In this document: positions 2,520 to 44,313 of the stretch, in pieces | How positions within the stretch are numbered: position 1 is the first letter of the stretch | How the letters are laid out: each line of letters opens with the position of its first letter | Sequence record: PP400777 | Source of the DNA: Escherichia phage JM10 | Strand: one strand, 5' to 3' | Length of the DNA stretch: 64,000 nt | Notes under the pieces: generated by a model | What the model was told of the DNA's origin: nothing | Database searches by the model: none | The model's input: only the letters and a program-made list of their open reading frames with translations | Program-made: the position numbers and the translations under genes

Positions 2520-2535
2520 AAGGGCCGAAGCCCTT
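2514..2535 (-). terminator. Rho-independent terminator (6-bp GC stem, UUCG loop, U-tract)
   Basis: Minus strand AAGGGC-UUCG-GCCCUU followed by UUUUUG; directly after stop of 2534..2959. Confidence 0.6.
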
Positions 2536-2959: not shown

Positions 2960-2962
2960 AAT

Positions 2963-3141: not shown

Positions 3142-3572
3142 TATTGTTCCTTAAAATGTGCTTTCAACATTTGATACAAAGACCATGCCTGGTCGTTATT
3201 TTCGATAGTAATTGTCATCACCGGAAATTCAGACAATTCGTCAAGTTCACCAGAATCTTGCTCTTCGGACGCTTGATACGGATTTCCCACTTCGTCAAAG
3301 AACTCTGCTTCATTCGTGGAGAGCCAGATAAAGTTTTCATCAAGAATATCACCGCCTGTTGCGTATCCAACCGTGCCAGTAGATGTCACAATTTTAGTAG
3401 GACGACCAAGATGGTCAACATCTAATACTTTAAATGGTTCCATGCCAAGACGTCGTGCATAAATCCCATTATCAGTGTGGCCTTTAATAAACTCTTCTTG
3501 GGCACGTTTATCTTTAAATTGGTACCATGAGTTAACGCGGAATTTATTAGCCATTAGTAAGTTTCCTTCCAA
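3141..3572 (-). CDS. hypothetical protein, 143 aa
   Basis: ORF track; tightly packed minus-strand operon. Confidence 0.55.
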
Positions 3573-19244: not shown

Positions 19245-19607
19245 TTAAAAGAATTTAAATTTTTTCTTGGTTCGTTCATTAAAAGCTTGTTGTACTTGCA
19301 TTGTAACACATTTTTCAACATGTGGTGCAAGTTCTGCTTTTCTGTCCTGGTCAAGAACTGCAAAGTCCATTACGATTTTACCATCAACCCAGTCTAGTTT
19401 TGTAATATAGACTATATGATGAGAACCGTCTTCAAGTGTAATCAGAATCTCTTGAATGACATTTTCCATTGCTGAACGGATAATTTTAAGAGATTCATTA
19501 AACACTCGTTCTTTGCGAATGTCTTCCCCTTCCGAAGAAGGGGATTCATCAACGATTTCTAGATTTAAATCATCGAGATTATTCATCGAAATCTTCCATT
19601 TCGTCAA
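19245..19607 (-). CDS. 40: hypothetical protein, 120 aa (gene 40 position)
   Basis: Synteny between 41 and uvsX. Confidence 0.5.
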   Translation of the reverse strand: MTKWKISMNNLDDLNLEIVDESPSSEGEDIRKERVFNESLKIIRSAMENVIQEILITLEDGSHHIVYITKLDWVDGKIVMDFAVLDQDRKAELAPHVEKCVTMQVQQAFNERTKKKFKFF

Positions 19608-20751
19608 GGTCGTTTTCTATATCTGCTGCAGACGGAGCATCAGAAGTTTTAACCGGAACTTTAGTTGTTGCTTTGCAATTAATAAGGTCGTTAACAGCGT
19701 CATCAACTTCTTTAATAGAAGAGATAGCACCTAGTTTATATTTAGTTTCAATTGCATCTCGGAAAGGCTTATGTTTAAACAACGGCCCCCAGAATTCTAC
19801 ACAATCAGTAGCTTTAGCACGCCATGATTTTTCTTCACGAATCATTTCACCTGTTTCTTCGTCAAGGAATTCACGAGCATACCACCCGGCTTTAGGCTTA
19901 ACTACAAAACCAATTTCAGTTGCCATTTCTAACAAGCCACTGAATGGGTCAATACCGCCATCAAAATTAACCGTGATCGGGAAAGTAGATTTTTCTTTAA
20001 CAGTACGAGATTTTTCAGCTTTCAACGTGAAGTCATAACCGGTCAATTCTGTACCTTCTTTAACCTGACGTTTAGAGATAAAAAATACCGTGTTGGCAGA
20101 ATAAAGAATACCTGTACCACCGCCCATAATCTCTTTAGGATACAATCCGCCGATTTCCATTGCGGTATGGTTAATTGCAACACACGGAATATCTTTAATA
20201 GTCAGATACGGGGTCACAATACGGAAAAGAGATTTAAGTGCCTTAGCACGAGACATATCACCTACAACTTTCTCGTTCAACGCATCTTCGGTTTCTTTCT
20301 TAGATGCAGTATTACCGATTGAATCGATAAAGATAATAACTTTATCACCACGTTCAATCGCGTCAAGCTGATTAGTCATATCGACTTTAAGTTGTTCGAC
20401 AGATTGAATCGGAGTATGAACTACACGGTCTAAATCAACACCCATTGAACGAAAATAAGATTCTGAAGCACCGAATTCTGAGTCATAAAACAAACAGATT
20501 GCATCTTTATATTTCTTCATATACGCTGCAACCATAGTTAGTCCAAACAATGTTTTAAAATGTTTAGAAGGTGCAGCAAAAATAGTCAAGCCTGATTGCA
20601 ATCCTGCATTCAGAGCACCGCCTAGTGCAATATTCAACATCGGAATACGAGTAGGGACTTCATCACGATTATTAAACAGCTTAGACTTAGTCAAGTCTGC
20701 AGTCATTTTAGAAGTAGAAGCTTTAATCAGACGAGATTTTAAATCAGACAT
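19579..20751 (-). CDS. uvsX: UvsX recombinase (RecA family)
   Basis: 390 aa; RecA-like core; synteny. Confidence 0.9.
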   Translation of the reverse strand: MSDLKSRLIKASTSKMTADLTKSKLFNNRDEVPTRIPMLNIALGGALNAGLQSGLTIFAAPSKHFKTLFGLTMVAAYMKKYKDAICLFYDSEFGASESYFRSMGVDLDRVVHTPIQSVEQLKVDMTNQLDAIERGDKVIIFIDSIGNTASKKETEDALNEKVVGDMSRAKALKSLFRIVTPYLTIKDIPCVAINHTAMEIGGLYPKEIMGGGTGILYSANTVFFISKRQVKEGTELTGYDFTLKAEKSRTVKEKSTFPITVNFDGGIDPFSGLLEMATEIGFVVKPKAGWYAREFLDEETGEMIREEKSWRAKATDCVEFWGPLFKHKPFRDAIETKYKLGAISSIKEVDDAVNDLINCKATTKVPVKTSDAPSAADIENDLDEMEDFDE

Positions 20752-20850: not shown

Positions 20851-21399
20851 TTAACGAGCCCATTTGATGATTTCTGTAATCAAATCATTACGTTCGCTTG
20901 CATTAAATCCTATAACTTTGTTAGCACCATCATGATTAAGTAATTGATACGTTTGGATTTTGTTATGAATTGCAAACTCTTCAAAATGTGAAATGACTGT
21001 ATTAAAACCGAATGAAGACAAAGTAATAAGATCGTCTTCAAAACTTTCAGTCATTTCGTTACGTGTTAAAATAATTGTGAACACATCATGGTTTTGGCAA
21101 AGACGAACATAATCCTGTTCATAAACGTCAAGAACCGAGTCCGCATCTTGTCGAATACGTCCATAAACCCAGTTACTAATATATCCACGGTCTAATAGAT
21201 AAATCTTAGTAGGGTCTAAATAATTCAACATCGTTTCGAAACAGCCAACTTCATTTCGAGACTTAACATCGAAACGTCCATCAACTGTTCGTTTAGGGAA
21301 ATCAATCTTTACATATCTTTCACTAATTTCCATTATGTCATTAATGAAAGTTGTTTTACCAGCATTATCCGGGCCATCTACTAAAATAATTTTAGCCAT
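20851..21399 (-). CDS. thymidylate-kinase-like P-loop nucleotide kinase
   Basis: 182 aa; P-loop ILVDGPDNAGKTT; DRY-like motif LDRGYISNWVYG. Confidence 0.55.
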   Translation of the reverse strand: MAKIILVDGPDNAGKTTFINDIMEISERYVKIDFPKRTVDGRFDVKSRNEVGCFETMLNYLDPTKIYLLDRGYISNWVYGRIRQDADSVLDVYEQDYVRLCQNHDVFTIILTRNEMTESFEDDLITLSSFGFNTVISHFEEFAIHNKIQTYQLLNHDGANKVIGFNASERNDLITEIIKWAR

Positions 21400-21400: not shown

Positions 21401-22300
21401 TTATTCCTCGATTACGACATCTTCGTATTTAGGTATATTATACGGTGAAGAAATTAAAGCGTTAAAGTAGATGAACTCACCAAGACCTGGATGGAATACT
21501 TCTTCAGGATTTTCGAAATATTGAATCTTCGGACGTCCTTTAAGAATTTGATAGTACTCAGTTTTAGTTGGTTTAAAAATTCGAATCAACGCTTCTTCAG
21601 GATACTTATTTCTGTCGAAGCTATTATTTGGATCGGTTATATAAAGCGGTTGGCCTAATTGAATTGCACATTCAACCACTTGTTCAAAACGATAGCACGG
21701 GTCACTAATTCGAAATGGATGAAAAATACCATCTAGATGAATAGGAGCCAAATCACCTACAAGACGCTGCATGATGGAAGGACGTATAACTTTCTGCGTT
21801 ACGATAATCTTATTACCATCTGCACCTGCGTTAACCAGCACTTCTTTTTGACGTTCATTCAACACAGTAGTTTGAAGTGAACGATTAACCGACAACATAT
21901 CAGTTTTTAAGAATTCGTCAATATAAAAACGTGGTTTATTAGGGTCTGCAGTGATATTGAAATTGAATTCCACATCAAAAGCGCCGTCATATCCGGTGAT
22001 ATCTGTGATTAGAAAATCACAATCATAATAAGCAATTAATGAATCAACCACAAATTCATTTTCAGACCAGAAATATTTACGAGTGTTATACGCGTTATCT
22101 TTATACCATAATGGAACAAACTTAAATTCTGGGAAAAGACGTTCGCATTCTTTAATATCGGATGCATTACGTGGATATGTAATCACATCGCCTGGATTAG
22201 CACGGTGCAAATGAAGTTGGAAGTTGCCATCCTTAAGGATAGCATACTGTCCAGTTTCATAAGACCGCATACTCAAAATAGGTACGCGGAAAATAGCCAT
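21401..22300 (-). CDS. hypothetical protein, 299 aa, at the T4 beta-gt position; candidate sugar transferase (inference)
   Basis: No motif recognised by eye; translationally coupled between gene 42 and the Tmk-like gene. Confidence 0.5.
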   Translation of the reverse strand: MAIFRVPILSMRSYETGQYAILKDGNFQLHLHRANPGDVITYPRNASDIKECERLFPEFKFVPLWYKDNAYNTRKYFWSENEFVVDSLIAYYDCDFLITDITGYDGAFDVEFNFNITADPNKPRFYIDEFLKTDMLSVNRSLQTTVLNERQKEVLVNAGADGNKIIVTQKVIRPSIMQRLVGDLAPIHLDGIFHPFRISDPCYRFEQVVECAIQLGQPLYITDPNNSFDRNKYPEEALIRIFKPTKTEYYQILKGRPKIQYFENPEEVFHPGLGEFIYFNALISSPYNIPKYEDVVIEE

Positions 22301-23016
22301 TAGTCAAGGAATCCTTTAACATAATCAAAATCACGTTCAAACACATGGGCACTTACCATGGTATGAGTATAATCACCAACTTCTACACCACATTCGTTAG
22401 CGATATAATGAAGTAATTTTCCTTGGAGATAAAAATCCAACTGCATAACAACAGCACAGTTCTGAGAACGCATATGACAGTGGGTATAAAGCTTACCATC
22501 ACGAATATAATAAGTCACTGAGTCAGTACATGGATATTCAAGCGTTTCGTCTGAATCAAGCAAAGCCTGATCAGAACTTTCTAGAATTTGGAACACAACT
22601 CTTCGAGAGTTAGGCTTCTCTTTAAGTTCTTTTAGAAGAGTTGGTAATTGGGCCGCAATGCGAGGACCATAGAAAGTGTTGAAGTTCGCCGGCAAAACAT
22701 CTGATTTTGGTTTAGAAATAAATTTAGCGACATTAGGATATGCCTTAAACGCTTCTTCTGCGTTGGTACCACCAGAAATCATAAACTTCCAGAAGTCTTC
22801 GGCATATTCATAAGAGATGCGGTTAATACGTGGGTCGGTCATTTTGAATGATGATGGAGTGTCAACAACTACTGTCATAGACCCAATTTCATTACAACGT
22901 CCAATACGAGAATCAGTTACGAATTCCGGGTTTTCTAAAATTTCACGATTGACTGCTTTAAATGCGGTTTGAAAATCTGCGGCTTTGATATATTTCATTG
23001 TGTTATGTTTTCCCAT
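22300..23016 (-). CDS. 42: dCMP hydroxymethylase (thymidylate-synthase fold)
   Basis: 238 aa; PCTDSVTYYIRDGKLYTHCHMRSQNCAVVMQLDF...CGVEVGDYTHTMVSAHVF parallels TS PCH..FQFYV.DGKL.CQLYQRS.D; synteny. Confidence 0.75.
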   Translation of the reverse strand: MGKHNTMKYIKAADFQTAFKAVNREILENPEFVTDSRIGRCNEIGSMTVVVDTPSSFKMTDPRINRISYEYAEDFWKFMISGGTNAEEAFKAYPNVAKFISKPKSDVLPANFNTFYGPRIAAQLPTLLKELKEKPNSRRVVFQILESSDQALLDSDETLEYPCTDSVTYYIRDGKLYTHCHMRSQNCAVVMQLDFYLQGKLLHYIANECGVEVGDYTHTMVSAHVFERDFDYVKGFLD

Positions 23017-23058: not shown

Positions 23059-23298
23059 TTATTTGAATTTCTTGACAATGTTGATATAACGTAAAGCTTC
23101 AGCATCGATACTTCCAAGAACACTATGAAGAAATGCATCAGCGTAGTATTCCAATTGAACAGGTTCTTTAATCACTTTAGCCGCTTTAGTTTCAAACAGG
23201 CCCATCAGGGCCTGTTTAAGAATTTGTTCATTAGTGTTCAGTTTCATAGTCAAAATCTCTTCATTAAGTTGGTGGTTAAAAGTTTTTCTAGAAATCAT
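23059..23298 (-). CDS. hypothetical protein, 79 aa
   Basis: ORF track. Confidence 0.45.
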   Translation of the reverse strand: MISRKTFNHQLNEEILTMKLNTNEQILKQALMGLFETKAAKVIKEPVQLEYYADAFLHSVLGSIDAEALRYINIVKKFK

Positions 23299-24455
23299 TC
23301 CGGGTACCTCAAAGCGTCATCAGAGTTAGTTATATCAATAATAGATATAGAGTTTTCTGCTAACCCGTTTTTAGATAATTGACGTTTATAATATCTTTCA
23401 CAATATGTACACGTCGTCCCGCAGATTTCATTAGCACAATCGAAATCTGGATGTCTGAACCACCTTTTTTCTAAAAAGCCATCTAACAAAGAGGTTTCAA
23501 TATTTACTGTATGTGAAAACTCAGTTTCGTTTTCAAGAGTGAAAATAGTCTCTAAAGGCTTCCACAGTTCTAACAAATTACCTTCAAACTTTTCAGAAGC
23601 GTATGCTTCAAGAACTTTCAAAATGTAGTCTGTACTACCTGTACGTCCTGAAACTTTGAATTGAGTGATACCAATATCATTATAAAGTTTCAAATCTTGA
23701 GGACGAACAAAACGAGTTCTCAACCAGTTAAATGGGTCTGTATCACGAGCTTTAATACAGTGCTGCATAGGATATCCGTTTAAGGATTTAGCATCATCAG
23801 CTGTAACATCAGTACTATGGAAAATATAGCAAGAGTCACGATAGCTACAATGTGTTGTATACCCTTTACCAGCATTAGAACAGAACTCATTTACAAGAAC
23901 TTCAAATATTATATTGTTCTTATTGCAAAACTCTGCTGCACGCTTCAGGAAAGAAACTGAACGGTTCTTATGAATTCCACAGCAGACCTTTTTGATATTA
24001 TATTGGTCATGCAAGTATTTGATTTGAGTTACAGCATCGACATGTAGAATTGTTGAAACTTCAATCTCAATGTCTTTATTGACTTCACGAACAATTTCCA
24101 TAACAACAGGGTTAGCGATAGTAATACGCCATACGCCTATTGACCAAAGATACTGAACATAATCCTGAATAGCTTTCTTCTTCCACTCAACTAGTTCTCT
24201 TTTTGAACCAGGATTTATCGTGTTGAGTGTATAGTTAAAGCAAATACCTAATTCGTTACAACGTTTAACGTAATCTTCTAACATCTTTTTGTCAACGTCA
24301 GGAAGCCTAAAATCAGGTCTGGCTGCTACAAAAGCCATTTCTCTTGTAGAGCCGTATACTTCGTTTATCAAGCTATTAGGATAAGTTTTATTGAGCTCTA
24401 CGATTTTATCAAGAAGAGCTAAATCAAAATTCGTTCCGATTTTAAAAGTATTCAT
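23295..24455 (-). CDS. hypothetical Cys-rich protein, 386 aa; candidate modification enzyme (inference)
   Basis: C-terminal cluster DFDCANEICGTTCTYCERYY (contains CxxxCxxC); inside the sugar operon. Confidence 0.5.
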   Translation of the reverse strand: MNTFKIGTNFDLALLDKIVELNKTYPNSLINEVYGSTREMAFVAARPDFRLPDVDKKMLEDYVKRCNELGICFNYTLNTINPGSKRELVEWKKKAIQDYVQYLWSIGVWRITIANPVVMEIVREVNKDIEIEVSTILHVDAVTQIKYLHDQYNIKKVCCGIHKNRSVSFLKRAAEFCNKNNIIFEVLVNEFCSNAGKGYTTHCSYRDSCYIFHSTDVTADDAKSLNGYPMQHCIKARDTDPFNWLRTRFVRPQDLKLYNDIGITQFKVSGRTGSTDYILKVLEAYASEKFEGNLLELWKPLETIFTLENETEFSHTVNIETSLLDGFLEKRWFRHPDFDCANEICGTTCTYCERYYKRQLSKNGLAENSISIIDITNSDDALRYPE

Positions 24456-24511: not shown

Positions 24512-24898
24512 TTATAGATTAGGTTTATATGATTTAAATGTTTCGAATTCGCCTTTATTCATAAGAGCTTTGAATTCGTCAGGACGCATAGCTTTGTCGT
24601 CGATAATCCAATCATATACTGGTTTATGTGTTAGCAAATTATGGTACTTCAAGCCAATGTTTGCCAAGTTCTGAATCAGACTTGGGAGAATGTCAATTGC
24701 TATACGTCCAGGACCTACTGACTTCATACCGCGAGCAGTGTAAAGCGTTATTGTATGCCCTGCATCATACAGAGCATTAATGGCAGACACCATTTCGACG
24801 TCTGGTTTGAAGTTCACGTAATCACGATTGTTATTCCACTCTGTTATACAATCATCGACATCAAAACAAAGATTAAGCATGTTTTCTACACGGTGCAT
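24512..24898 (-). CDS. HAD-superfamily phosphatase (sugar-phosphate phosphatase-like)
   Basis: Motif I LCFDVDDCIT near N-terminus; start probably at an internal Met overlapping the upstream stop. Confidence 0.6.
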   Translation of the reverse strand: MHRVENMLNLCFDVDDCITEWNNNRDYVNFKPDVEMVSAINALYDAGHTITLYTARGMKSVGPGRIAIDILPSLIQNLANIGLKYHNLLTHKPVYDWIIDDKAMRPDEFKALMNKGEFETFKSYKPNL

Positions 24899-26583
24899 TA
24901 GATTCGTTCCCATTGATGAGTGATATCGCCACCGATTGGACGATAGGAAACACCAGTTTCTTTATCAGTTAGTACCCATTTACCAGGATTTTTTGTAATC
25001 AGAGTAGCCGTTACAGGTTCTGCTACGTCATAACTAATAGAGCCGTCCTGAAGTACACGGCCCATGTTACGTAATTGCTTAGTCAGAAGTTCCATACCTT
25101 TATAATATGCGGCTACCGCTTTAAGTGGATTATTCTTGAAATAACCACCTAATGCAATCCAGATAATTGCCACTGCCAAATGATGATACTCGTTAAACGA
25201 ACTCATCTTTCCATATTTGTAAACTAATGGATTGATGTTAATAGTCACATTACAAGTTGTTTCATCAATAGTAAACTGTCCCCAGGTCGGATTAGCATTG
25301 AATTCATCATAACCTGAAACAGCATAAAGCACTTTAGCTTCATCATACAATTTTGGCCCGTAAATCTTGGTTTCGCCAAAATATCCACGAGGGTCGATAA
25401 ACTTGACTTCGCCGTTATCAGTAATCATAGTATTACTGAAGTTCGGGTCACCGTGAATAACAGAGTACTGCCCCTGAGAACGGTTATGATAACGAATAAG
25501 GTGTTCTAAAGCTTGTTTCAGCATTGGCTTCAGACGTCCAATCTTAGTGTAGTTCACATGTGTGATTTTACCAAATGAATCAATCAATGGTTGAATGCTT
25601 TCACAACGATCAATAACTTTCGTATAGAATTCTTTAGTGAAATCACGACGAACAGTTTCAGGACTTACAAAATAAGTGTCTGTGCTGAATTTCAGTGCAT
25701 CTAAAATTGCATCAACAATTTGTGGACGAGCAAGACTTGATTTGGATTTAATATATTCAAATGCCGGCTTACCTTTAATGCGTTCCATTTCAAAGTTATT
25801 TTCATTAACAGAAACTAACTGAGGAACTGAATCTGATTTCACTTTAAGATACCATGAAATCTCATCTTTCTGAAGAGCTCGACCTTGTTCAGTTAATGCG
25901 AATTTAGTTACAGTTTCTTCACCAATTTCAACTGCATTAAAACTACGATTAAGTTCACGAACTTCATGAGCTTTTTCAAGTTTAGGCATATCACCTAAAT
26001 CAATTATATTCATAAGCTCTGATTTATTGAATGCGCCGCTGTAAAGGAATTCTACAAAATCACGTCCTTTGCAGTATTCATGAATTTCCTCATCGGTAGA
26101 ACCCATATAGAATTCCCAGTCTTTGAACTGATAAATTCCTACAACATTACCACCTGTTGAACCTACGTTAGTGATATTTTCACCGTCGAAATTATAGCGA
26201 CATTCGTCACCCTTAACATAGATTGCGTTGACATTCCAAGACCATGAACCAAAATCAGGAATAATATCGCACCAGTTAACAATTACGTTATGGCCATCTA
26301 AATCTTTGTGTAATTTAGCAAGAGCATAAGCAGATCCGTATGCTTCATCAACTGTACGAATAGTCACATTGAACCCTTCTTGCTCACAATAAGCTCGAAC
26401 AGTTTCAGCAAATTTTGAATGAACTACTACAATAATTTCATCTGCGCCAAGGTCAGAATAAATTGTATACAAATTGCTCAGAATAGTGTCTTGTTTATAG
26501 TTAACAAGCACCTTAGGAATATGATGCGTTATTGGATACAAACGAGTTGCCAGTCCAGCACCAAGAATAACAGCTTTTTTCAT
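24898..26583 (-). CDS. bifunctional sugar-1-phosphate nucleotidyltransferase (N-terminal) / protein-kinase-like sugar kinase (C-terminal)
   Basis: 561 aa; N-terminus MKKAVILGAGLATRLYPIT (RmlA-like G-x-G-T-R-L); C-terminal HGDPNFSN (HGDxxxxN) and FIDPRG (APH/choline-kinase family). Confidence 0.7.
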   Translation of the reverse strand: MKKAVILGAGLATRLYPITHHIPKVLVNYKQDTILSNLYTIYSDLGADEIIVVVHSKFAETVRAYCEQEGFNVTIRTVDEAYGSAYALAKLHKDLDGHNVIVNWCDIIPDFGSWSWNVNAIYVKGDECRYNFDGENITNVGSTGGNVVGIYQFKDWEFYMGSTDEEIHEYCKGRDFVEFLYSGAFNKSELMNIIDLGDMPKLEKAHEVRELNRSFNAVEIGEETVTKFALTEQGRALQKDEISWYLKVKSDSVPQLVSVNENNFEMERIKGKPAFEYIKSKSSLARPQIVDAILDALKFSTDTYFVSPETVRRDFTKEFYTKVIDRCESIQPLIDSFGKITHVNYTKIGRLKPMLKQALEHLIRYHNRSQGQYSVIHGDPNFSNTMITDNGEVKFIDPRGYFGETKIYGPKLYDEAKVLYAVSGYDEFNANPTWGQFTIDETTCNVTININPLVYKYGKMSSFNEYHHLAVAIIWIALGGYFKNNPLKAVAAYYKGMELLTKQLRNMGRVLQDGSISYDVAEPVTATLITKNPGKWVLTDKETGVSYRPIGGDITHQWERI

Positions 26584-26624: not shown

Positions 26625-26768
26625 CTAGTTAAAGCATTCATACTTCGCTTGTAGTCCAATCATAATCCATCCGATTATAAGAGTCGGAACCATTACTGGA
26701 GCCGTTAAGCTCCAGTAGATAGTCATGACAAGCATCAATAGTAAAAGTCCTATTGTTATTGCTTTCAT
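26625..26768 (-). CDS. small membrane protein, 47 aa
   Basis: Hand translation MKAITIGLLLLMLVMTIYWSLTAPVMVPTLIIGWIMIGLQAKYECFN; ATGA start/stop overlap with the SIS gene; SD GAGG. Confidence 0.45.
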   Translation of the reverse strand: MKAITIGLLLLMLVMTIYWSLTAPVMVPTLIIGWIMIGLQAKYECFN

Positions 26769-27400
26769 TGCTCGCCTCGTAACATGGCACCTAGTGCACC
26801 GCCTGGATGGAACTTAAGGAAGTCATTAGAGGTAAATCCACGTTCAGACGAAAGGTTGATAGCAAACGTATCGATAAGCGCTAACAACAATGTAGTGGAC
26901 ATAGTCGGAGCCAGAGAATTCTCATCAACCTCTACTGCGATGCCTGTACAGAACGTATAATCAAAAAGAGCTTCGTATTCTTGTGGAATGTCAGGGTTAC
27001 AATGTAACAGAATCTGTTTAACCTGAGGACGAATCATACGAAGATGTTTAGCAACACCTATCATTTCTTCAGTCTTACCAGAACGACTGATGTGAACTAA
27101 TACATCATTAGGTGCAATAAATCCTGCGTCACCATGAGAATAATGCCCGGTGTTCAAATACATGCTAGGAATACCGAGTGAAGCAAAAGTCTCGGAAGCT
27201 TTAGTTGCGATATTAGCATTCTTACCAACACCTGTAATAATTACTCGGCTTTCATAATTACTAAGTCCCGGGCGTCGAAGAGTTTCTAGAATAGCATTAT
27301 AACGAGCAGGGTTTTGACTAATTACTTTGGCCATAGCGGCCAAAGAAGAAGCTTGTTTTATGATTGCGTCAATAGCGATAGTAATAGGAGTAGTTTTCAT
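26765..27400 (-). CDS. SIS-domain sugar-phosphate isomerase (arabinose-5-phosphate isomerase KdsD/GutQ-like, no CBS domains)
   Basis: 211 aa; VIITGVGKNANIA, SRSGKTEE, HPGGALG. Confidence 0.7.
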   Translation of the reverse strand: MKTTPITIAIDAIIKQASSLAAMAKVISQNPARYNAILETLRRPGLSNYESRVIITGVGKNANIATKASETFASLGIPSMYLNTGHYSHGDAGFIAPNDVLVHISRSGKTEEMIGVAKHLRMIRPQVKQILLHCNPDIPQEYEALFDYTFCTGIAVEVDENSLAPTMSTTLLLALIDTFAINLSSERGFTSNDFLKFHPGGALGAMLRGEQ

Positions 27401-27440: not shown

Positions 27441-30152
27441 TCAAAAATCGAACATATCGAACAGAGATGCTTTCTTCTCGTAATCGAGTTTCGCTGCTGA
27501 TGTGAATCCTTCAAGTGGTTTAATAAATGTCTTCTCAAGGAGAACAGTGTAGTCCATCCAATGAAGTACGTCGTCTTTAATTAAATCTGTGATTTCAGTG
27601 CCAGAAGGCCATGCGATACATTTATCACCGAATGGGTTTCCTTCACGTAAAGGCAGAACATATACTTTTTCACCTTCTACAACTTGCGGTGCATCGATAT
27701 TACCTTTGATAGCCCGGTTATACGTCAGAATTCCACGAATATGGAACGGGCATTTGGGACCAGGGAATCCACCGACATCATATTTAGCAATGTTATTCGC
27801 AGAAGATACCGACGCGATGCTAATATAATTCAATTGACGGAATTCTTTTTCAAACTCTTTAAAATATTCTTGTAATGATTCTTCACCTTCTTGAAGCATA
27901 CGACGAATACATTCTTTAAGAGCTTTCTGTACTGCTTTAGGGGTCGAAGATTTCTGAGTCTCTAGACCCATGATTTTGAGTTTAGGCTCAGCGTAACGAG
28001 TGCCTTCCATATCCCACACGTTTAATGCATAACGTTTCTTACCAGTCCAGAATCCACCAATACCTTTAGAACCGAGCGGAGGACCAGCGATAGCTTCTCG
28101 GTCCATGAACATTAAGTGTTGTTTATTGTTCATGTATTCACACATTTCACGGAAACCTCTATCAATAGCAGGTTCCATACGTTCACGAGCGAACTTATCT
28201 AAGAAGTCTACCCAATGGTTGGTATCACGGAATTTAGATTCACCAACCTTATCGATAATTTTATCAGCAGATACGTAAATAGAGTCTGTATCACCATAAA
28301 GAACGAAAGCTTCACCTTCTGTACCACAAACTTCATTCAGATATTCATTAACTTTACGTTCAATCCACTGTAAAGCCATTTGCCCGAATGTTGTGATTGC
28401 AGTAGCATTACGCAAATCATAATAACGGAACCAAACGTTTCCAAGTGCACCATAAAGCGAGTTGATGAGCAATTTACGGTTAATCTGTGCAGTCATACCT
28501 GCAACTTCAGTACGTTGAGCTCTAAACAACATTTCATTAAGAGATTTAGCAGACAACTTTTTAATCTTTTCTTTAATCTCAACGCTGAAGTCGAAACGAT
28601 AATCAACATCTAACGGTTCGTCAACAGAAAGATTAGGATTATGCAATGCCTCTTTAATTATTTCACCATTACGTTGAGCTGCAAGCATGTAACCTTTATG
28701 TTCTTTACGTTGATTAAAGACCTTAGTGATTTCAGTTGGAACTACACCATCACGGTCTTTATAATACATCATGCCGTTAGGAGAACAACTGTACACATCT
28801 GAAGGACGTTCAGCGATTGCGTTAATATAATCATGCAGTGGAGCTACTTTAAACGTTCCTGCTATTGTTTCCGGGCTAATATTCACTTGGCGAATAATAC
28901 TTGGATACAGAGATGTAAGGTCGAAACTCATTACATATTTGTATCGATTTGGAATAGGTTCCTTAACAAAAGCGCCAGGATAAGGTTGAACTGGGTGAGA
29001 ACGACCTTGTGGAATCACCTTGTTCTGTTCTTTAAGGCTATTAAAAATAATAGCATCCCATGTTTTAATTGGGCTAAACACAGATTGAATCTGTATCTTA
29101 GCATAATAACCCATGTCCAAACTCAAGTTGATGAACTGACGCTTAGCATCAATTTGCAATACACGATACACGTCGATAATGTTATAAGAAATATATCGTT
29201 GGTGATTGCTTTCACGAAGCTTAGAAATAGGGCCGTCATATTTCAGTTTACCAACGTTCAATTCAAATTCTGAAATGTAATCCAGAGAATACGACGGTTG
29301 ATTGGTAAAAGAGAATTTTTTGTAAAGGTCAATGTAATCAAGAACAGAGATACCGAACAATGTAATGATTTCACGAGAACCATACATGTTTTCGATAACT
29401 TTAACACGAGTTTTACGATGTGGTGATAAACGTTTCGCAGTAGATTCGCCAAAAATATTCTTGATTCGGTTATACACATATGGAATATCAAATGACTCAA
29501 CGTTCCATCCAGTCAAAATGACAGGAGTTTTCTGTTGCCAGAAGTTGAGATATTCCATCAACAATTCTTTTTCGTTATCGAACGGCATATAAATGATTTT
29601 ATCAATAATTTCGGATGGAACTTCATCACCGCCTTGTTCTTGAAGCTTAGCCGCAATTTCGATAGACCATTCTTCTACATTACCATACGGAGAATTCAAT
29701 AGATCAAATACGTAGAACCTGTCGTCAATTGAGTCATAATGGGTGATAGCATCAATCGGATGTTTTGCTTGTGACGGCTCAGGGAACCCATCCGGAGATG
29801 TTACTTCGATGTCGAAGTTAGCCACACGAATTTTTGTATGGTCGTATTTGATTTCATAGTTATAAGTGTCAGACAAATACGCCAATTTGAAATCGTCCAT
29901 GCCAAGTGCTTCAAGTCCGATATCTTCCATGCGTTTAATCCATTGGGAGGCATCACGCATATTAGCGAACAACTTACGAGTACACGGCTTACCGTAGATA
30001 TCGAAATATTTCGTAGCCTGACTTTCTGGACAATGAGCAAACAGTGATGGTTTATATTCTACTTCACGAGTACGTTCACGGCCATTAGAATCGATGTAAC
30101 GTTCAAAAATTGAATCACCAATCTGTTCAACCGTTAAGTAAAATTCTTTCAT
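27441..30152 (-). CDS. 43: DNA polymerase gp43 (family B)
   Basis: 903 aa; exonuclease and polymerase motifs (YGDTDS); synteny. Confidence 0.95.
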   Translation of the reverse strand: MKEFYLTVEQIGDSIFERYIDSNGRERTREVEYKPSLFAHCPESQATKYFDIYGKPCTRKLFANMRDASQWIKRMEDIGLEALGMDDFKLAYLSDTYNYEIKYDHTKIRVANFDIEVTSPDGFPEPSQAKHPIDAITHYDSIDDRFYVFDLLNSPYGNVEEWSIEIAAKLQEQGGDEVPSEIIDKIIYMPFDNEKELLMEYLNFWQQKTPVILTGWNVESFDIPYVYNRIKNIFGESTAKRLSPHRKTRVKVIENMYGSREIITLFGISVLDYIDLYKKFSFTNQPSYSLDYISEFELNVGKLKYDGPISKLRESNHQRYISYNIIDVYRVLQIDAKRQFINLSLDMGYYAKIQIQSVFSPIKTWDAIIFNSLKEQNKVIPQGRSHPVQPYPGAFVKEPIPNRYKYVMSFDLTSLYPSIIRQVNISPETIAGTFKVAPLHDYINAIAERPSDVYSCSPNGMMYYKDRDGVVPTEITKVFNQRKEHKGYMLAAQRNGEIIKEALHNPNLSVDEPLDVDYRFDFSVEIKEKIKKLSAKSLNEMLFRAQRTEVAGMTAQINRKLLINSLYGALGNVWFRYYDLRNATAITTFGQMALQWIERKVNEYLNEVCGTEGEAFVLYGDTDSIYVSADKIIDKVGESKFRDTNHWVDFLDKFARERMEPAIDRGFREMCEYMNNKQHLMFMDREAIAGPPLGSKGIGGFWTGKKRYALNVWDMEGTRYAEPKLKIMGLETQKSSTPKAVQKALKECIRRMLQEGEESLQEYFKEFEKEFRQLNYISIASVSSANNIAKYDVGGFPGPKCPFHIRGILTYNRAIKGNIDAPQVVEGEKVYVLPLREGNPFGDKCIAWPSGTEITDLIKDDVLHWMDYTVLLEKTFIKPLEGFTSAAKLDYEKKASLFDMFDF

Positions 30153-35548: not shown

Positions 35549-35774
35549 TACACGCTTCAGCCATTTTAAGAATAGAGCCGGGAGTATCGTTGTCCATTAT
35601 ATTAAAGCTAAATTCAATAGCCCAGTCGGTGCAGACATGAACTGCTTTAACTTCATTGCCTTCAACACGTAATGGTTCAATCCAATACTTGATAGTGTTC
35701 TCGAATCCATCATCTTTAACGTCTATTTCAACTTCAAGCCCAAGACCAGCATTATTAAATTCATCTAAAGTCAT
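35520..35774 (-). CDS. hypothetical protein, 84 aa (46.2 position)
   Basis: ORF track. Confidence 0.45.
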   Translation of the reverse strand: MTLDEFNNAGLGLEVEIDVKDDGFENTIKYWIEPLRVEGNEVKAVHVCTDWAIEFSFNIMDNDTPGSILKMAEACIEDAYNDED

Positions 35775-36790
35775 TGTGTCGCCTCAATATAAAGTTCGTT
35801 GGAATATTTGACCAGCGCTTCTCTGTCTTCGTCTGAGATATCTGGAATCGCGTCAATATATTCTTTAATGATATCTTGAAGTGATTTAATCTCGATTTCC
35901 TGGTCGTCATCAGATTCAACACTGTTATCAACTTTAGAAACCATACGAAGAGAGTGAACTACTTTTTCAAGTTCAGATTCAAACTTAGTCAACTCTGAAT
36001 CAATTTCTGATACTATAACACGTACGGCTAGATTAGTATAATCAGAATAATTGATTTTGCCTTTAAATGGATAAGTGATTCGTCGATGCCATGTTGTTTC
36101 ATTAGGAATAAATTCCATACGTTCAACATCAGTGTCAAATACCCAGAATCCGCGAGGGTCGTTCTCATCACCTGCAGTAAGGGTCCATGGTGTCCCAATA
36201 TATTTGACGTTAGCCGCTTCAGAGATTGTGTGGAAGTGGCCGGACCAGACTTGTTTATAGGTCTTTAAGAAATCAGGTTCAAGCCCGTGAGACTTCATCC
36301 CTTTATAGAAATAAAAGCCATTCAGTTCCCAATGACCAACACAATACGCGGCAGAAGAAGTCTTGATGTGCTCTAAGATTTCACCTGTATTTTCTTCGCA
36401 CATCCATGGAACGATATCAATCAGACATCCGTCAAAATCTACAGTAGTCGGATGCTCGTAAATAGTAAAGTTTTCAAATTGAGTTAACAATTCAGAAACA
36501 GTGTTAGGTGTTATTGTATTCTTAAACGCCATGTCATGGTTTCCTATCGTGACATGAACGTGAATGCCTGCTTTAGAAATCATATCAACGATTTCACGAT
36601 TGAATTCCATTGTACGATGTGTTATTGCTTTACGGACGTCAAACCAATCACCGTACTGAATCCAAGTTTTAATCCCGTGTTTCTTAGAGTATTCAATTGC
36701 TTGACGAATACCGTCACGTTGAATATCTTGAACCCATGGGTCGTCTTGTTTGACTCCGATATGGAAGTCGCCTAAGTGCAAAATTTTCAT
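35771..36790 (-). CDS. 47: recombination nuclease subunit gp47 (Mre11/SbcD-like phosphoesterase)
   Basis: 339 aa; MKILHLGDFHIG; GNHD. Confidence 0.9.
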   Translation of the reverse strand: MKILHLGDFHIGVKQDDPWVQDIQRDGIRQAIEYSKKHGIKTWIQYGDWFDVRKAITHRTMEFNREIVDMISKAGIHVHVTIGNHDMAFKNTITPNTVSELLTQFENFTIYEHPTTVDFDGCLIDIVPWMCEENTGEILEHIKTSSAAYCVGHWELNGFYFYKGMKSHGLEPDFLKTYKQVWSGHFHTISEAANVKYIGTPWTLTAGDENDPRGFWVFDTDVERMEFIPNETTWHRRITYPFKGKINYSDYTNLAVRVIVSEIDSELTKFESELEKVVHSLRMVSKVDNSVESDDDQEIEIKSLQDIIKEYIDAIPDISDEDREALVKYSNELYIEATQ

Positions 36791-36813
36791 ATTATTTCCT
36801 CATTAGTTAATTC

Positions 36814-36839
36814 ATTCTATCATCCGTTTATAAAGCAAA
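36814..36839 (-). promoter_or_regulatory. MotA-dependent middle promoter upstream of gene 47 (TTTGCTTTA, 11 nt, TAGAAT)
   Basis: Minus strand TTTGCTTTATAAACGGATGATAGAAT. Confidence 0.6.
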
Positions 36840-36860
36840 AAAGGAACTCCGAAGAGTTCC
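36837..36860 (-). terminator. Rho-independent terminator (UUCG loop, U6)
   Basis: Minus strand GGAACUC-UUCG-GAGUUCC-UUUUUU. Confidence 0.65.
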
Positions 36861-37033
36861 TATCCACATAGTACACCGTACAAAGGCTCATTTGAACTTT
36901 TAAATCGAATGGGCTTGTATGTAATAGTTCCTTCGGCTTTAGCTTTATCGTAAGACTCTTTAAAACGTCTCATTCTTTCTGCTTTGCCTTTACGGATTTT
37001 ATCGAAATTTTCAGAGGTCAGGTCGTTCGTCAT
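36860..37033 (-). CDS. small basic protein, 57 aa
   Basis: Hand translation MTNDLTSENFDKIRKGKAERMRRFKESYDKAKAEGTITYKPIRFKSSNEPLYGVLCG; ends at the terminator; below track cutoff. Confidence 0.4.
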   Translation of the reverse strand: MTNDLTSENFDKIRKGKAERMRRFKESYDKAKAEGTITYKPIRFKSSNEPLYGVLCG

Positions 37034-37072
37034 GCATAATCATCTCTCAGAAAATACCTAAACCGATTTCTC

Positions 37073-37294
37073 TCATCGTTTCCACCATTTCTTAACTTGA
37101 AATGAATCAACCCACACGAGTTGTTTTGGGTCAGCCTTTACAATAGGCGGACAAATTTCTGTAATAGAACCGTCGTGATATTCCTTTTCAGAGATTTTAA
37201 CACAAAGAGGACCTCCCAATTTAAGGGTGAACCCTGCGTTCAGCTTCAGACGTTTAAACTTTGTTTGAACTAGCGCCATTAATGATGTCCTCAA
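37073..37294 (-). CDS. hypothetical protein, 73 aa
   Basis: ORF track; overlaps next ORF, start uncertain. Confidence 0.35.
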   Translation of the reverse strand: MRTSLMALVQTKFKRLKLNAGFTLKLGGPLCVKISEKEYHDGSITEICPPIVKADPKQLVWVDSFQVKKWWKR

Positions 37295-37577
37295 TAGCCT
37301 GACGTGTAGTAACCCACTGGATTTTAATTAACTTGTCATTATATGGTTGTCGTAGAATATCCCGAGATTTCTTAATAGCATATTCGTAAGCTTCGAAGTT
37401 GTTTTTAATTGCTGCTTCTTGAGCATGAGCATAAAGACGGTTTAGTTCAAAACGATTCTTTTTAAGAATCTTTTCGGATTTTTTACGTGCTTCAGCTTCA
37501 TTTTTCTTTTGGATTTCTTGTAGCATTTTAGCTACTGCATCTTCTGCTTCTTTATTTTCAATAATCTCGGTAGTCAT
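37254..37577 (-). CDS. hypothetical helical, Lys/Glu-rich protein, 107 aa
   Basis: ORF track. Confidence 0.45.
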   Translation of the reverse strand: MTTEIIENKEAEDAVAKMLQEIQKKNEAEARKKSEKILKKNRFELNRLYAHAQEAAIKNNFEAYEYAIKKSRDILRQPYNDKLIKIQWVTTRQAIEDIINGASSNKV

Positions 37578-37578
37578 A

Positions 37579-37794
37579 TTATCTCATTAAATTAAAATAA
37601 AAACGTCCATCCTCTTCAATACAGAACTCATACTCAACCGGAGTCCCATTTATCGAAAATGACACGTCATGTGGGTTCAAAGGGTCGATGTCAAAATTAA
37701 TTTTAAATTCACGACCCAACAATTTTACCAAATAAGGGATTGCTTCGTCAAAAGGTTCTTCTAAGTAGTTAGAGATGTCAATTGTCATCCTCAT
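37579..37794 (-). CDS. hypothetical protein (start adjusted downstream of gene 55 stop)
   Basis: Track ORF 37579..37872 overlaps gene 55 by about 95 nt. Confidence 0.4.
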
Positions 37795-38353
37795 ATAAAA
37801 AATCCAAACTAGGCGAATCGCTAACAACTTCCTTCTTTTCAGCCCCAGGAGCTTTATAAGCGGATTCTTCATAACGCGTCATTTTATCGTAGATGTCTTG
37901 AATAAACGTTTCATCTACCAACGCTACCATATCATCGTCATGACTGTCGTAGACATTATGAACGAAGTAACTATATTTCTTTGCAACTTCCTTACGTTCT
38001 TTTTTGATACGTTGGACAAAAGCATTAAAACAAGCTCGAGTTATGTATGCATGTGGGTTATTGTACTTAGTTTCGTCGAAATTATGAAGTCCCTTAATAG
38101 AGGCTTCAATACCATCTGCAATCATCTCCTGCTTCCAAGACTGGGTATATCCTGAAAAGTTGAAACGTTTGGACAGGCCTTCGGCGATAAGCATAATTGC
38201 TAAACCGATGGTATCATTCTGACGAATAATTTTGTTTGGGTCTTTATTATTTAAGAGCTCCTTTTTCCACTCGATTATAGCGGCGAGAAGCTCTTTATTA
38301 TTCACATAGTTATTTTTATGTTTTTGTTCAGTCATAAGTACCTCTTGGCTCAA
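37778..38353 (-). CDS. 55: late-transcription sigma factor gp55
   Basis: 191 aa; synteny; sequence pattern recalled from T4 gp55. Confidence 0.85.
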
Positions 38354-40983: not shown

Positions 40984-41454
40984 TTAATCATGTTTCCACA
41001 CCCCATCAGTATTTGACCAAAGTCGCTGATTATCTGATCCTCGCCACAGCTTTTTAGTCGGAAGATTTTTCTCATACTTCCCATCAATAATAACATCAAC
41101 ATATTTAAGCATTTCTAGTTGTTTAATATCTTCAAACTTATATCCTGTCCACAACCAAATGCTTTTATTTGGATAAAGATTTTTAATAGTTTGAACCACA
41201 GAGTGAATCACATCTCTGTTATCAGGATAGAGAGGGTCACCTCCGGTTATAGTCAATCCTTCTATATAATCATTATTCAAACATTCAATTAATTGTTCTA
41301 GTGTTTCACCAGTGAATGGAATACCATTTCTAGCATTCCATGTTGATTTATTATAACACCCTTCGCATTTATGCAAACAACCTGTGACGAAAAGAACGAC
41401 CCTGCAACCAGGGCCATTCACAAAATCGCAAGGATAAAATCTATCATAATTCAT
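40984..41454 (-). CDS. nrdG: anaerobic ribonucleotide reductase activating protein NrdG (radical SAM)
   Basis: 156 aa; CDFVNGPGCRVVLFVTGCLHKCEGCYN. Confidence 0.9.
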   Translation of the reverse strand: MNYDRFYPCDFVNGPGCRVVLFVTGCLHKCEGCYNKSTWNARNGIPFTGETLEQLIECLNNDYIEGLTITGGDPLYPDNRDVIHSVVQTIKNLYPNKSIWLWTGYKFEDIKQLEMLKYVDVIIDGKYEKNLPTKKLWRGSDNQRLWSNTDGVWKHD

Positions 41455-42756
41455 TGGTGTTTAACCCTATGCATGATTTCTTTATTTTTACCAAGATTAA
41501 ATCCGCGTTCGTTCGGATTTCCCAAATAACCGCATGTTCTTCTTATGGTGTTCATCTTTTTAGGATCACTTTCTCCACAAACTGAACAAACAAATCCGTT
41601 TTCAGTAGGAGTCATTTCATGGGTACTTCCACATGTAAAACATTTATCTACTGGCATATTAACACCAAAATAATCTAAATGTTGTGCAGCATAATCCCAG
41701 ACAGCCTCAAGTCCCTTTAAATTGTTTTTCATATCTGGAAGTTCAACATAAGAAATGTGACCACCTGTCGCAATGAAATGATATGGCGCTTCACGAGAAA
41801 TCTTTTCAAACGGAGTAATATTTTCTTCTACTGAAACATGGAAACTGTTAGTGTACCAGCCTTTATCGGTGACATCCTTTACACTTCCATATTTTTCTGT
41901 ATCAAGTTTACAGAAGCGATAACAAAGGTTTTCAGCAGGAGTAGAATATAAACTAAAAGCAAATCCAGTTCTTTCAGACCACTGTTTAAGATGAGCATTC
42001 ATTTTAGTTAAAATTTCTTGTCCAATATCACGACCGACAAGAATATTCAATTCGTGAATACCGATGTATCCCAAAGACACTGAACTTCTACCGTTTTTAA
42101 ATAACTCAATTATGTCGTCATCAGGTTTAAGACGAACCCCGAATGCACCTTCTTGGTAAAGAATAGGAGCTACAGTTGCTTTAACACCCTTTAAAGAACT
42201 AATTCTACACATCAAGGCTTCAAAACACAGATCCATTCGTTCATTAAATAGCTCAACAAATTTCTGTTCATTGAACTGTGTTCCAATATAAGAATCTAAC
42301 GCAATACGAGGAAGATTCAATGTTACAACACCAAGATTATTACGTCCGTCAAGAATTTCATTTCCAGTTGAATCTTTCCATACACTCAAGAAACTACGAC
42401 AGCCCATTGGAGAAACTGGAACTGAAGAACCAGTAATAGCTTTATTATTCTTAGCTGAAATAATATCAGGATACATCCTTTTGCTTGCGCACTCTAAAGC
42501 AAGTTGCTTAATGTCGTAATTCGGATCGTCTTTATAAAGATTAACGCCTTCTTCAACGAACATAACAAGCTTAGGGAAAATAGGAGTTATCCCATCACGT
42601 CCAAGACCTTTAATACGATTTTTCAGAATTGCTTTCTGAATCATTCGTTCGGTCCAGTCAGTTCCCGTACCAAATGTAATTGTTACAAAAGGAGTCTGTC
42701 CGTTTGAACTGAAAAGTGTATTTACTTCATCATTATATTCAGCATGAGTCGCAAAT
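41451..42756 (-). CDS. nrdD: anaerobic ribonucleotide reductase NrdD, exon 2 (5' boundary approximate)
   Basis: C-terminal zinc ribbon CFTCGSTHE...CSVCG and glycyl-radical region; ends KNKEIMHRVKHQ; upstream exon separated by about 1 kb. Confidence 0.8.
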
Positions 42757-43527
42757 TCATGCCCGTTTATATGAAACAACAAAATTTGGATAGTCCATAG
42801 ATATGCAACGTTCTTTTATAGTGCTAGGATGAAAATTTAGCGCTTTAGCTGCTTCTATATAAGACGTATACTTAATACCGTCAACAACCACATATTCAGG
42901 AACTTTATGAATAGTAGTCTTAATACTCAAAACAAGAGGATGAGTTTCGACTTCACTTTCAGTGCAATTTAAATATTCCGCTGCTTTTTTAAAACTTCTA
43001 AAAGTTTTATTTTTAAGCTTTATCGATACTTGTTTTTTACTTTTTCGACTATTGATATTATTTTGCACATGTTCCTTAGATCTTCCGTTTTTAGCATAAT
43101 ATTCAGCTACAGAAGATTTTATATTGTTTTTATGAGATTCGGATAACACTTTACCCTTATGAGCATCTCTTAATTTTTGAATATGTTCTTCAGTATCCGG
43201 ATGCTTATAAAACTTTTTACCGCCTATGGATTTATTTAAACATTTTTTGCTATAAAAATATTTACGTATGACCTCTTCTTCATGTTTTAATGCATCTTTA
43301 TAACTATCAAATGTTTTTAAAATTATCCATTTAGTAGGTGTATCAGTTTTTAAGCGTTCATTTATATACTTAGATGACGTTGTGTAAGTTTTCCAGTTTG
43401 TGGGCTTGTTTTTAATTGTTCTAAATTTTTTATAACCGATATAAATGTCGCCATTAGAAAACTTAACTAAGTATGTAAATGCGTCTTTATCTTTTATTTT
43501 AGTACAACGTCTTTTTATCCATTTCAT
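42757..43527 (-). CDS. intron-encoded GIY-YIG homing endonuclease (I-TevII-like)
   Basis: 256 aa; DAFTYLVKFSNGDIYIGYKK (GIY-YIG); NUMOD3-like AHKGKVLSESHKNNI; inside the nrdD intron. Confidence 0.75.
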   Translation of the reverse strand: MKWIKRRCTKIKDKDAFTYLVKFSNGDIYIGYKKFRTIKNKPTNWKTYTTSSKYINERLKTDTPTKWIILKTFDSYKDALKHEEEVIRKYFYSKKCLNKSIGGKKFYKHPDTEEHIQKLRDAHKGKVLSESHKNNIKSSVAEYYAKNGRSKEHVQNNINSRKSKKQVSIKLKNKTFRSFKKAAEYLNCTESEVETHPLVLSIKTTIHKVPEYVVVDGIKYTSYIEAAKALNFHPSTIKERCISMDYPNFVVSYKRA

Positions 43528-43790
43528 TGTTTCACCTCGTATTCATAAGATAATCTTATTTATACAAGATGACTGCTGCATGTCGCCATGCAGATTAGAC
43601 TATATCTTCATCTTTCGATGCCGGCCGTTTCGAATAGCATTAGCTTCTATTCTACACCGCTACATTCATCACGGTTAGTCGTTAGGCATTTAGTTCAAAA
43701 GAACATTTAGCACGGGATTGTCTACTAGAGAGGTTCCCCGTTTAGACCGGTTTTACATGAGCCTGAATTAAATTAACTCATACGCCTGGA
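42757..43790 (-). mobile_element. group I self-splicing intron interrupting nrdD (boundaries approximate)
   Basis: NrdD reading frame broken between 42782 and 43768; intron RNA contains CUAAACGGGGAACCUCUCUAGUAGACAAUCCCGUGCUAAAU, recalled as T4 nrdD (sunY) intron core. Confidence 0.75.
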
Positions 43791-44313
43791 ATGCATCGTA
43801 TACATCTTTTTCTGTTTTAGATTGAGCATAATTCAACGCATCAGCGATTTGCCATTTTTCTGCATCCTCAATATGTTTTGCATAGGTGCGTTTAACATAA
43901 GGAGAAAGAACTTTATCTACATTCGCAAATGTAGTTCCGCCATACTGGTGTGAAGCAACTTGTGCGGTAATTTGTGCCATAATTGCAGTAGCAACACCAA
44001 TAGATTTAGGCGTTTCAATTTGAGCATTGCCTAATTTAAATCCATTCTCAAGCATCCCCTTTAAATCGACTAAACAGCAATTGGTAAACGGAAGAGCAGG
44101 AGAATAATCAATATCATGCATGTGAATGATTCCACTTTCATGCGCATTCATAATAAAAGACGGGACCATATTTTTGGCAATGTGCTTAGACACAATACCA
44201 GCCATAAGGTCCCGTTGAGTTGGAAAAACACGAGAATCTTTATTAGCATTCTCGTTTAAAAGATCTTTATTAGTTTTATGAATCAGTCCTTCAATTTCTT
44301 TTTCAATTTTCAT
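43768..44313 (-). CDS. nrdD: anaerobic ribonucleotide reductase NrdD, exon 1 (3' boundary approximate)
   Basis: 181-aa ORF ending inside the intron; exon 1 plus exon 2 total about 605 aa. Confidence 0.8.
   Translation of the reverse strand: MKIEKEIEGLIHKTNKDLLNENANKDSRVFPTQRDLMAGIVSKHIAKNMVPSFIMNAHESGIIHMHDIDYSPALPFTNCCLVDLKGMLENGFKLGNAQIETPKSIGVATAIMAQITAQVASHQYGGTTFANVDKVLSPYVKRTYAKHIEDAEKWQIADALNYAQSKTEKDVYDAFQAYELI

Follow-up and report, generated by a model that had tools for sequence, protein, structure and literature searches.

In phage T4 the gene for the DNA alpha-glucosyltransferase (a-gt) lies between gene 47 and gene 55, and the corresponding locus of Escherichia phage JM10, in which only about 1 kb separates these two genes, raises the question of how this phage modifies its DNA. 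We addressed this question in a window of 64,000 nucleotides (sequence record PP400777, one strand), about 38% of a genome of approximately 168 kb; all genes discussed here lie on the minus strand. A preliminary description of this DNA had proposed that a-gt is missing from the interval, that the beta-glucosyltransferase gene (b-gt) is missing as well, and that DNA glucosylation of the T4 kind does not take place in this phage. Our analyses make it very probable that JM10 is a Mosigvirus phage with a short form of the 47-55 interval, no a-gt, and a pathway to arabinosyl-5-hydroxycytosine instead of glucosyl-hydroxymethylcytosine (glucosyl-hmC), with the alpha-glucosyltransferase absent because the lineage makes no glucosyl-hmC. 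Our own data concern the genes present in the interval, the lack of any a-gt or b-gt sequence, the identity of the cassette genes and the GT-B fold of one cassette protein, and the chemistry and enzyme activities are taken from published experiments with phages RB69 and HY126 (PMC6024577, PMC13326640).

Four small genes between gene 47 and gene 55

The interval is bounded on its left by gene 47 (35771 to 36790), which encodes a 339-amino-acid SbcD-like recombination endonuclease subunit corresponding to RB69 gene 47 (phrog_100, E = 1.6e-135; Pfam Metallophos), and on its right by gene 55 (37778 to 38335), which encodes the late sigma factor (phrog_234, E = 1.1e-67; 88% identity to T4 gp55 by tblastn) and whose open reading frame (ORF) extends to 38353 if counted from a TTG codon. 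Between them, positions 36791 to 37777 span 987 bp and hold exactly four ORFs, confirming the earlier account of a gap of about 1 kb with three or four small ORFs of 57 to 107 amino acids, along with its coordinates and gene identities. The upper sizes quoted in that account reflect the longest possible starts, and its end coordinate of 37872 is the longest possible start of the rightmost small gene, overlapping the 3' end of gene 55.

The RB69 annotation names these four ORFs a-gt.2 to a-gt.5, and each has a T4 orthologue. The gene nearest to gene 47 is a-gt.2 (36860 to 37033; 57 amino acids), a DUF5486 protein (Pfam PF17588, E = 4.5e-28) with 75% identity to its T4 counterpart, followed by a-gt.3 (37073 to 37279; 68 amino acids; phrog_1648, E = 2.1e-34; 71% to T4 a-gt.3), whose ORF lengthens to 73 amino acids (37294) from an upstream TTG. 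Next are a-gt.4 (37254 to 37577; 107 amino acids), a DUF2654 protein (Pfam PF10849, E = 1.4e-27; 61% to T4 a-gt.4), and a-gt.5 (37579 to 37788; 69 amino acids, the length annotated in RB69), a DUF5491 protein (Pfam PF17595, E = 1.4e-12; 45% to T4 a-gt.5) that overlaps the gene 55 stop by 11 nt. The longest ORF for a-gt.5 is 97 amino acids, with its farthest ATG at 37872, and the PF17595 match begins at residue 29. A search of the available literature for a-gt.2 to a-gt.5 returned no match. Within a-gt.5, positions 37722 to 37751 on the minus strand contain the best sigma-70-like match of the region (TTGACG, an 18-nt spacer and TG-TAAAAT, 10/12), a possible early promoter within this gene that would serve a-gt.4 to a-gt.2; the region contains 10 promoter-like sites compared with 6.5 +/- 2.6 in shuffled sequence, which is not significantly above expectation.

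The interval thus holds four small genes only, without the glycosyltransferase of roughly 400 amino acids that T4 carries there, and tblastn found no a-gt among them. The T4T order is 47, 47.1, a-gt (400 amino acids), mobB, a-gt.2, a-gt.3, a-gt.4, a-gt.5 and 55, so that the absence of 47.1, a-gt and the homing endonuclease gene mobB is the sole difference in gene content from T4 between genes 47 and 55. In contrast, the order 47, a-gt.2, a-gt.3, a-gt.4, a-gt.5, 55 is identical in RB69 and other Mosigvirus relatives. The alignment to RB69-type genomes suggested in the preliminary description revealed 98 to 99% nucleotide identity across this region to about 135 Mosigvirus records (RB69, JM17, PhAPEC2, HX01, HY126 and others), each alignment forming a single uninterrupted piece, and therefore there is no insertion relative to these relatives. 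The first 25 kb and the last 25 kb of the window are likewise 96 to 98% identical to the Mosigvirus group, and the left edge of the window lies inside the fused 60+39 topoisomerase gene, with its right end near 67 kb of RB69. Because the identity to Mosigvirus records is 96 to 99%, we assign the window, from its sequence, to an RB69-like T-even phage of the genus Mosigvirus.

Glucosyltransferase searches and the arabinose cassette

Searching all six frames of the window by tblastn with T4 a-gt gave a best E value of 2.7, and the same search with T4 b-gt gave a best E value of 5.6, bearing out the claim that b-gt is missing. Pfam AGT (PF11440) had no match in the 24 window ORFs of at least 150 amino acids; as a positive control, T4 a-gt scored 862 bits against this family. 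In RB69 from 1 to 87.5 kb, the best a-gt match by tblastn (E = 0.022) fell inside e.5, a gene also present in T4, and the best b-gt match had an E value of 4.8. These results agree with the published finding that BlastP with T4 a-gt, T4 b-gt and T2 ba-gt yields no homologue in RB69 (Thomas 2018, PMC6024577), which was restated for the alpha- and beta-glucosyltransferases by Lee 2026 (PMC13326640). Across 50,697 phage records, a-gt homologues were found in Tequatrovirus (at least 90%), Klebsiella Jiaodavirus (approximately 66%), Erwinia Cronus and a few others, and b-gt homologues in T4 proper, Karam-, Moon- and Gelderlandvirus and others (126 b-gt-positive records), with no RB69-type phage among the matches listed for either gene.

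We considered whether JM10 might still glucosylate hmC in the T4 way through an a-gt, b-gt or ba-gt gene outside the window, since the window covers only part of the genome and T4-like genomes are mosaic. A RefSeq label appears to point in this direction: in phage HX01 (NC_018855.1), the gene at 2443 to 3543, just left of the position matching the first letter of the window, is annotated as "DNA alpha-glucosyltransferase." However, the protein it encodes is 99% identical to RB69 ORF003c, has no similarity to T4 a-gt by BLASTP (E = 7.2), does not match Pfam AGT, and belongs to phrog_8302 rather than phrog_2888. We therefore rejected the label as a refutation. Furthermore, RB69 ORF003c matches the solved HY126 glycosyltransferase structure 9iqz over its full length (E = 5.1e-249). 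Judged by these matches, the HX01 gene is the proposed second arabinosyltransferase and its label is an over-transfer. ORF003c immediately adjoins the topoisomerase gene in both HX01 and RB69, and by analogy we expect its homologue just off the left edge of the window. Together with the lack of a-gt, b-gt and ba-gt homologues in RB69, the lack of RB69-type phages among the listed matches, and a gene-42 homologue of the 5-hydroxy-dCMP (5hodCMP) synthase type, with which the hmC acceptor would not be made, these findings render a T4-type glucosyltransferase elsewhere in the genome extremely improbable.

The preferred explanation, arabinosylation of 5-hydroxycytosine, is supported by a set of genes between uvsX (19579 to 20751) and gene 43 (27441 to 30152). 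The alternative sugar cassette noted in the preliminary description is the RB69 ORF045c-055c arabinose cassette, present here with about 98 to 100% protein identity. RB69 DNA carries arabinose rather than glucose (Thomas 2018, PMC6024577), and the modified base is mono- or di-arabinosylated 5-hydroxycytosine made by gp45 to gp55 and gp3 (Lee 2026, PMC13326640). Arabinosylated 5-hydroxycytosine in virion DNA was demonstrated in RB69, with HY126, Bas46 and Bas47 cited as further cases, and the Kanagawaviruses and Dhakaviruses are listed among the lineages with the 5-hydroxycytosine cluster (PMC13326640).

The gene in place of gp42, the T4 dCMP hydroxymethylase, encodes a thymidylate-synthase-family enzyme (22300 to 23016) that is 98.7% identical to RB69 ORF048c and only 25% identical to T4 gp42. 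RB69 gp48 makes 5-hydroxy-dCMP, not hydroxymethyl-dCMP (PMC13326640). The JM10 protein is essentially identical to PDB 9iqc (phmmer E = 2.9e-160), deposited as "Thymidylate synthase," and we infer that this entry represents the HY126 5hodCMP synthase. Identity to both ORF048c and 9iqc indicates that a flavin-dependent ThyA-family 5hodCMP synthase replaces gp42. This diverged thymidylate-synthase homologue would hydroxylate dCMP to 5-hydroxy-dCMP.

Genes for UDP-arabinose synthesis are also present, the homologues of ORF055c, ORF052:53 and ORF051c being 97.6 to 99.7% identical to their RB69 counterparts; their functions follow PMC13326640. The putative arabinose-5-phosphate isomerase (26765 to 27400) is the 97.6% identical ORF055c homologue with a SIS domain (Pfam SIS, E = 9.6e-10). 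A 561-amino-acid bifunctional nucleotidyltransferase and kinase (24898 to 26583; RB69 gp52:53, AfhE-like), predicted to make UDP-arabinose, matches NTP_transferase (E = 8.4e-10) and, weakly, kinase families, and is 98 to 99.7% identical to RB69 ORF053c plus ORF052c. The ORF051c homologue (24515 to 24898; 99% identity) is a predicted HAD-like sugar phosphatase, AfhF-like. Together, the isomerase, the bifunctional kinase/uridylyltransferase and the phosphatase would supply UDP-arabinose. The cassette also contains, first after uvsX, the ORF045c homologue (20851 to 21399; 99.5%), a putative nucleotide kinase as proposed in PMC13326640, and a Peptidase-U32-like protein (23295 to 24455; Pfam PF01136, E = 7.3e-11; 99% to ORF050c). 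In contrast to the RB69 reference, ORF046:47 (299 amino acids, 21401 to 22300) and ORF052:53 are each unsplit here, and these intact ORFs give independent support to the published view that the RB69 splits are sequencing errors.

The 299-amino-acid ORF encodes the homologue of RB69 gp46:47, the proposed arabinosyltransferase 1, with 99 to 100% identity to RB69 046c plus 047c. It sits directly downstream of the gene-42 homologue and upstream of uvsX, and its product has no Pfam or named PHROG assignment. Its 138 homologues (44 aligned) are widespread in T4-like phages and all are called hypothetical. The structure predicted for this protein (pLDDT 94.9, pTM 0.89), when compared with solved folds, confirmed a GT-B fold at the level of the model, so that a GT-B first arabinosyltransferase of the gp46:47 type is present by sequence identity and predicted fold. 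GT-B arabinosyltransferases, namely this protein and the ORF003c homologue, would add one or two arabinoses to 5-hydroxycytosine.

The preliminary description had called for a search for GT-B fold proteins and for an a-gt or b-gt homologue elsewhere; neither glucosyltransferase turned up in the window, but GT-B folds do exist in this phage group. The 299-amino-acid protein and the ORF003c homologue might accordingly be seen as diverged equivalents of a-gt and b-gt that were replaced and relocated and still glucosylate hmC. We consider this very improbable, since RB69 DNA bears arabinose, not glucose, and on 5-hydroxycytosine, since the cassette encodes a UDP-arabinose pathway, and since neither protein belongs to the a-gt or b-gt family at the sequence level. 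The fold similarity of the 299-amino-acid protein is of a generic GT4-like kind, with sucrose-phosphate synthase, BshA and PimA scoring better. The resemblance of these two GT-B proteins to T4 a-gt and b-gt ends at the generic fold, and they are proposed arabinosyltransferases outside both families.

Several points weigh against arabinosylation as the full account of JM10. The remainder of its genome was judged from its relatives RB69 and HX01, and the window is a mosaic that matches no deposited genome exactly, with 96 to 99% identity to its relatives. RB69 from 87.5 to 167.5 kb was assessed by published BlastP and by annotation, in which each gene of more than 100 amino acids corresponds to a named gene of T4 and no transferase is among them. 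The role of gp46:47 as the first arabinosyltransferase is a proposal (PMC13326640), and the individual transferases were inactive in vitro. Finally, the chemistry is known from relatives only, and by analogy with them JM10 probably carries the same arabinosylated DNA.

Two features of RB69 touch on the cassette and on hmC. T4 has imm and imm.1 in the space separating gene 42 from gene 43 (locus L003, 6360 to 6999), whereas RB69 imm and imm.1 lie near sp/61.4 (locus L004, 19011 to 19689). In RB69 the arabinose cassette takes up the space from gene 42 to gene 43, and the annotation of its ORF054c notes a similarity to the T4 42-imm intercistronic region. From this comparison, the cassette seems to have displaced imm. 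In a second RB69 locus outside the window (L007, 23220 to 24490), the annotation lists arn.1 to arn.4 and no arn. McrBC attacks unglucosylated hmC DNA, and T4 arn is an inhibitor of McrBC; the absence of arn from the RB69 annotation would be in keeping with a phage lacking hmC.

A terminator and promoter-like element at the boundary of the missing segment

Only 69 bp lie between the start of gene 47 and the stop of a-gt.2, and they are taken up by a hairpin and a promoter-like element. Terminator scanning and RNA folding identified an intrinsic-terminator-like hairpin (36842 to 36861) with an 8-bp stem, a UUCG loop and a following T6, which overlaps the a-gt.2 stop codon and is annotated as a terminator in PhAPEC2 and other Mosigvirus records. 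Reading the sequence directly and scanning for patterns revealed, at 36814 to 36840 upstream of gene 47, a MotA-box-type middle-promoter-like element consisting of TTTTGCTTTA, an 11-nt spacer and TAGAAT. Positions 36814 to 36861 thus read as an intrinsic terminator followed by a putative MotA-box middle promoter, the promoter activity being suggested by the T4 MotA-box consensus. In this genus the short form of the interval runs 55, a-gt.5, a-gt.4, a-gt.3, a-gt.2, the hairpin and MotA-type promoter, and 47. The fold of the spacer is just the terminator hairpin (z = -1.2), and we rejected a hidden structured RNA in the interval because no Rfam gathering-level match occurred anywhere in the window.

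A MotA-box-type element occurs at the same place in T4, RB69, WG01, PEi20, PG7 and KP17, and the full hairpin and promoter-like element stands ahead of gene 47 or 47.1 in WG01, PEi20, PG7 and RB69. In T4 and Jiaodavirus KP17, both of which have a-gt, a second copy of the UUCG hairpin with GCTTTA...TAnAAT lies beyond a-gt, and the genomes lacking a-gt (the window, RB69, WG01, PEi20 and PG7) have exactly one copy at this spot. These findings led us to propose, tentatively and with somewhat less than even confidence, that a-gt forms a self-contained mobile module, flanked on both sides by copies of a terminator/MotA-promoter cassette of the "PmSL" type. We infer that the a-gt segment, with or without mobB, was gained or lost between two such cassettes, in either direction. 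If so, recombination at the cassettes could explain how lineages switch between DNA-sugar chemistries.

One specific form of this proposal is that the short interval is a secondary deletion, in which a Mosigvirus ancestor lost a-gt, together with 47.1 and mobB, by recombination between the flanking cassettes when it switched to arabinosylation. The occurrence of a-gt at exactly this site in Tequatrovirus and Jiaodavirus, bracketed by two cassette copies where genomes without a-gt have one, is consistent with such a loss, as is the published role of these cassettes as substrates of modular shuffling in T4-like phages (promoter-stem-loop cassettes, PeSL and PmSL; PMC2839356, PMC4122927). The short form is found, however, in at least four genera (Mosig-, Dhaka-, Karam- and Kanagawavirus), and therefore a gain of a-gt in or into Tequatrovirus and Jiaodavirus is at least as parsimonious. 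Furthermore, the two T4 cassettes are alike at the motif level only: an ungapped repeat search did not pair them, the copies sharing short functional motifs only, and we rejected the idea that they form a true direct repeat. No trace of a-gt, 47.1 or mobB turned up by tblastn or alignment, either within the 69-bp spacer or elsewhere in the window. On balance, we regard secondary deletion as unlikely.

The composite of hairpin and promoter-like element occurs only twice on the coding strand of the window, and its other copy, at 2516, likewise lies next to an indel, namely a homing endonuclease gene without an RB69 counterpart, which is a further point for loss by recombination at such elements. 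This second UUCG hairpin with GCTTTA...CGGATGATAGAAT spans approximately 2490 to 2545, and the identical 13-mer CGGATGATAGAAT is common to it and the element upstream of gene 47. It lies just upstream of a 227-amino-acid NUMOD3 homing-endonuclease ORF (1803 to 2486, minus strand) between the 60+39 topoisomerase gene and the ORF005c homologue; RB69 has no such ORF, and HX01 annotates it as "HNH endonuclease."

Other observations concern the mosaic makeup of the window. The topoisomerase large-subunit gene 60plus39 (2 to 1810, minus strand) has 79.5% protein identity to RB69, compared with 92 to 100% for its neighbours, and is a locally divergent mosaic piece closer to HX01 than to RB69. Relative to RB69, the window has two extra homing-endonuclease ORFs, the NUMOD3 ORF and a 256-amino-acid GIY-YIG/NUMOD1 ORF (42757 to 43527). 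The latter lies between two ORFs of 443 and 181 amino acids into which nrdD, encoding the anaerobic ribonucleotide reductase, is seemingly split (41451 to 44313, minus strand); nrdD is one 605-amino-acid gene in RB69, and two nrdD pieces are annotated in several relatives. The gp61.2 homologue (14807 to 15466, minus strand) matches Pfam AdfA (anti-DarT factor A) over its full length (E = 6.6e-120), marking it as an anti-defence gene.

Diagnostic value of the empty slot and comparison with known systems

The form of the 47-55 interval without a-gt is also found in Dhakavirus WG01, which keeps 47.1, in Karamvirus PG7 and in Kanagawavirus PEi20. PEi20 has a homologue of the 299-amino-acid transferase (P0006, 72% identity). 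PG7 carries b-gt and ba-gt and is therefore expected to glucosylate. Because PG7 lacks a-gt at this site yet has b-gt, the empty slot alone is not diagnostic, and by itself it is no marker of non-glucosylating phages; it is informative only in combination with a missing b-gt and the arabinose cassette. The preliminary description had argued from precisely these three observations together. The conclusion that JM10 does not glucosylate its DNA in the T4 way is likewise supported, as published for the RB69 group (PMC6024577, PMC13326640).

As a discovery, the short interval carries little weight, being the ordinary, published state of the Mosigvirus group. The absence of a-gt and b-gt in RB69-type phages is already known (published in 2018 and 2026), the replacement pathway has been worked out biochemically, and deposited structures are available for both the 5hodCMP synthase and the ORF003c-type transferase. 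What is mildly new is only the arrangement of a-gt between flanking cassettes, which is consistent with the published PeSL/PmSL model and unproven here. Of practical value, the assignment to arabinosyl-5-hydroxycytosine predicts how such a phage behaves toward restriction systems, type IV enzymes, CRISPR-Cas and sequencing chemistries, and the RefSeq label "DNA alpha-glucosyltransferase" on the ORF003c homologue would mislead checks by keyword.

In the published PmSL architecture, a stem-loop precedes a promoter that combines a Mot-box (TGCTT) and a -10 box (Comeau 2014, PMC4122927). The element at 36814 to 36861 has this architecture and, like the cassettes described previously (Arbiol 2010, Comeau 2014), sits at an indel boundary between related genomes, suggesting a possible role in recombination; the two papers on these cassettes (PMC2839356, PMC4122927) do not mention a-gt, gene 47 or RB69. 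Compared with T4 a-gt (PF11440, phrog_2888; PDB 1XV5/1Y6F), the GT-B proteins of the RB69 group match neither PF11440 nor phrog_2888. The comparison with T4 b-gt (PF09198) is one of position, as JM10 has a glycosyltransferase gene in the equivalent place, downstream of the thymidylate-synthase-like gene and upstream of uvsX, and the protein that would add the first arabinose thus occupies the T4 b-gt slot. The phage does not even make hmC, and its departure from T4 is therefore deeper than the sugar.

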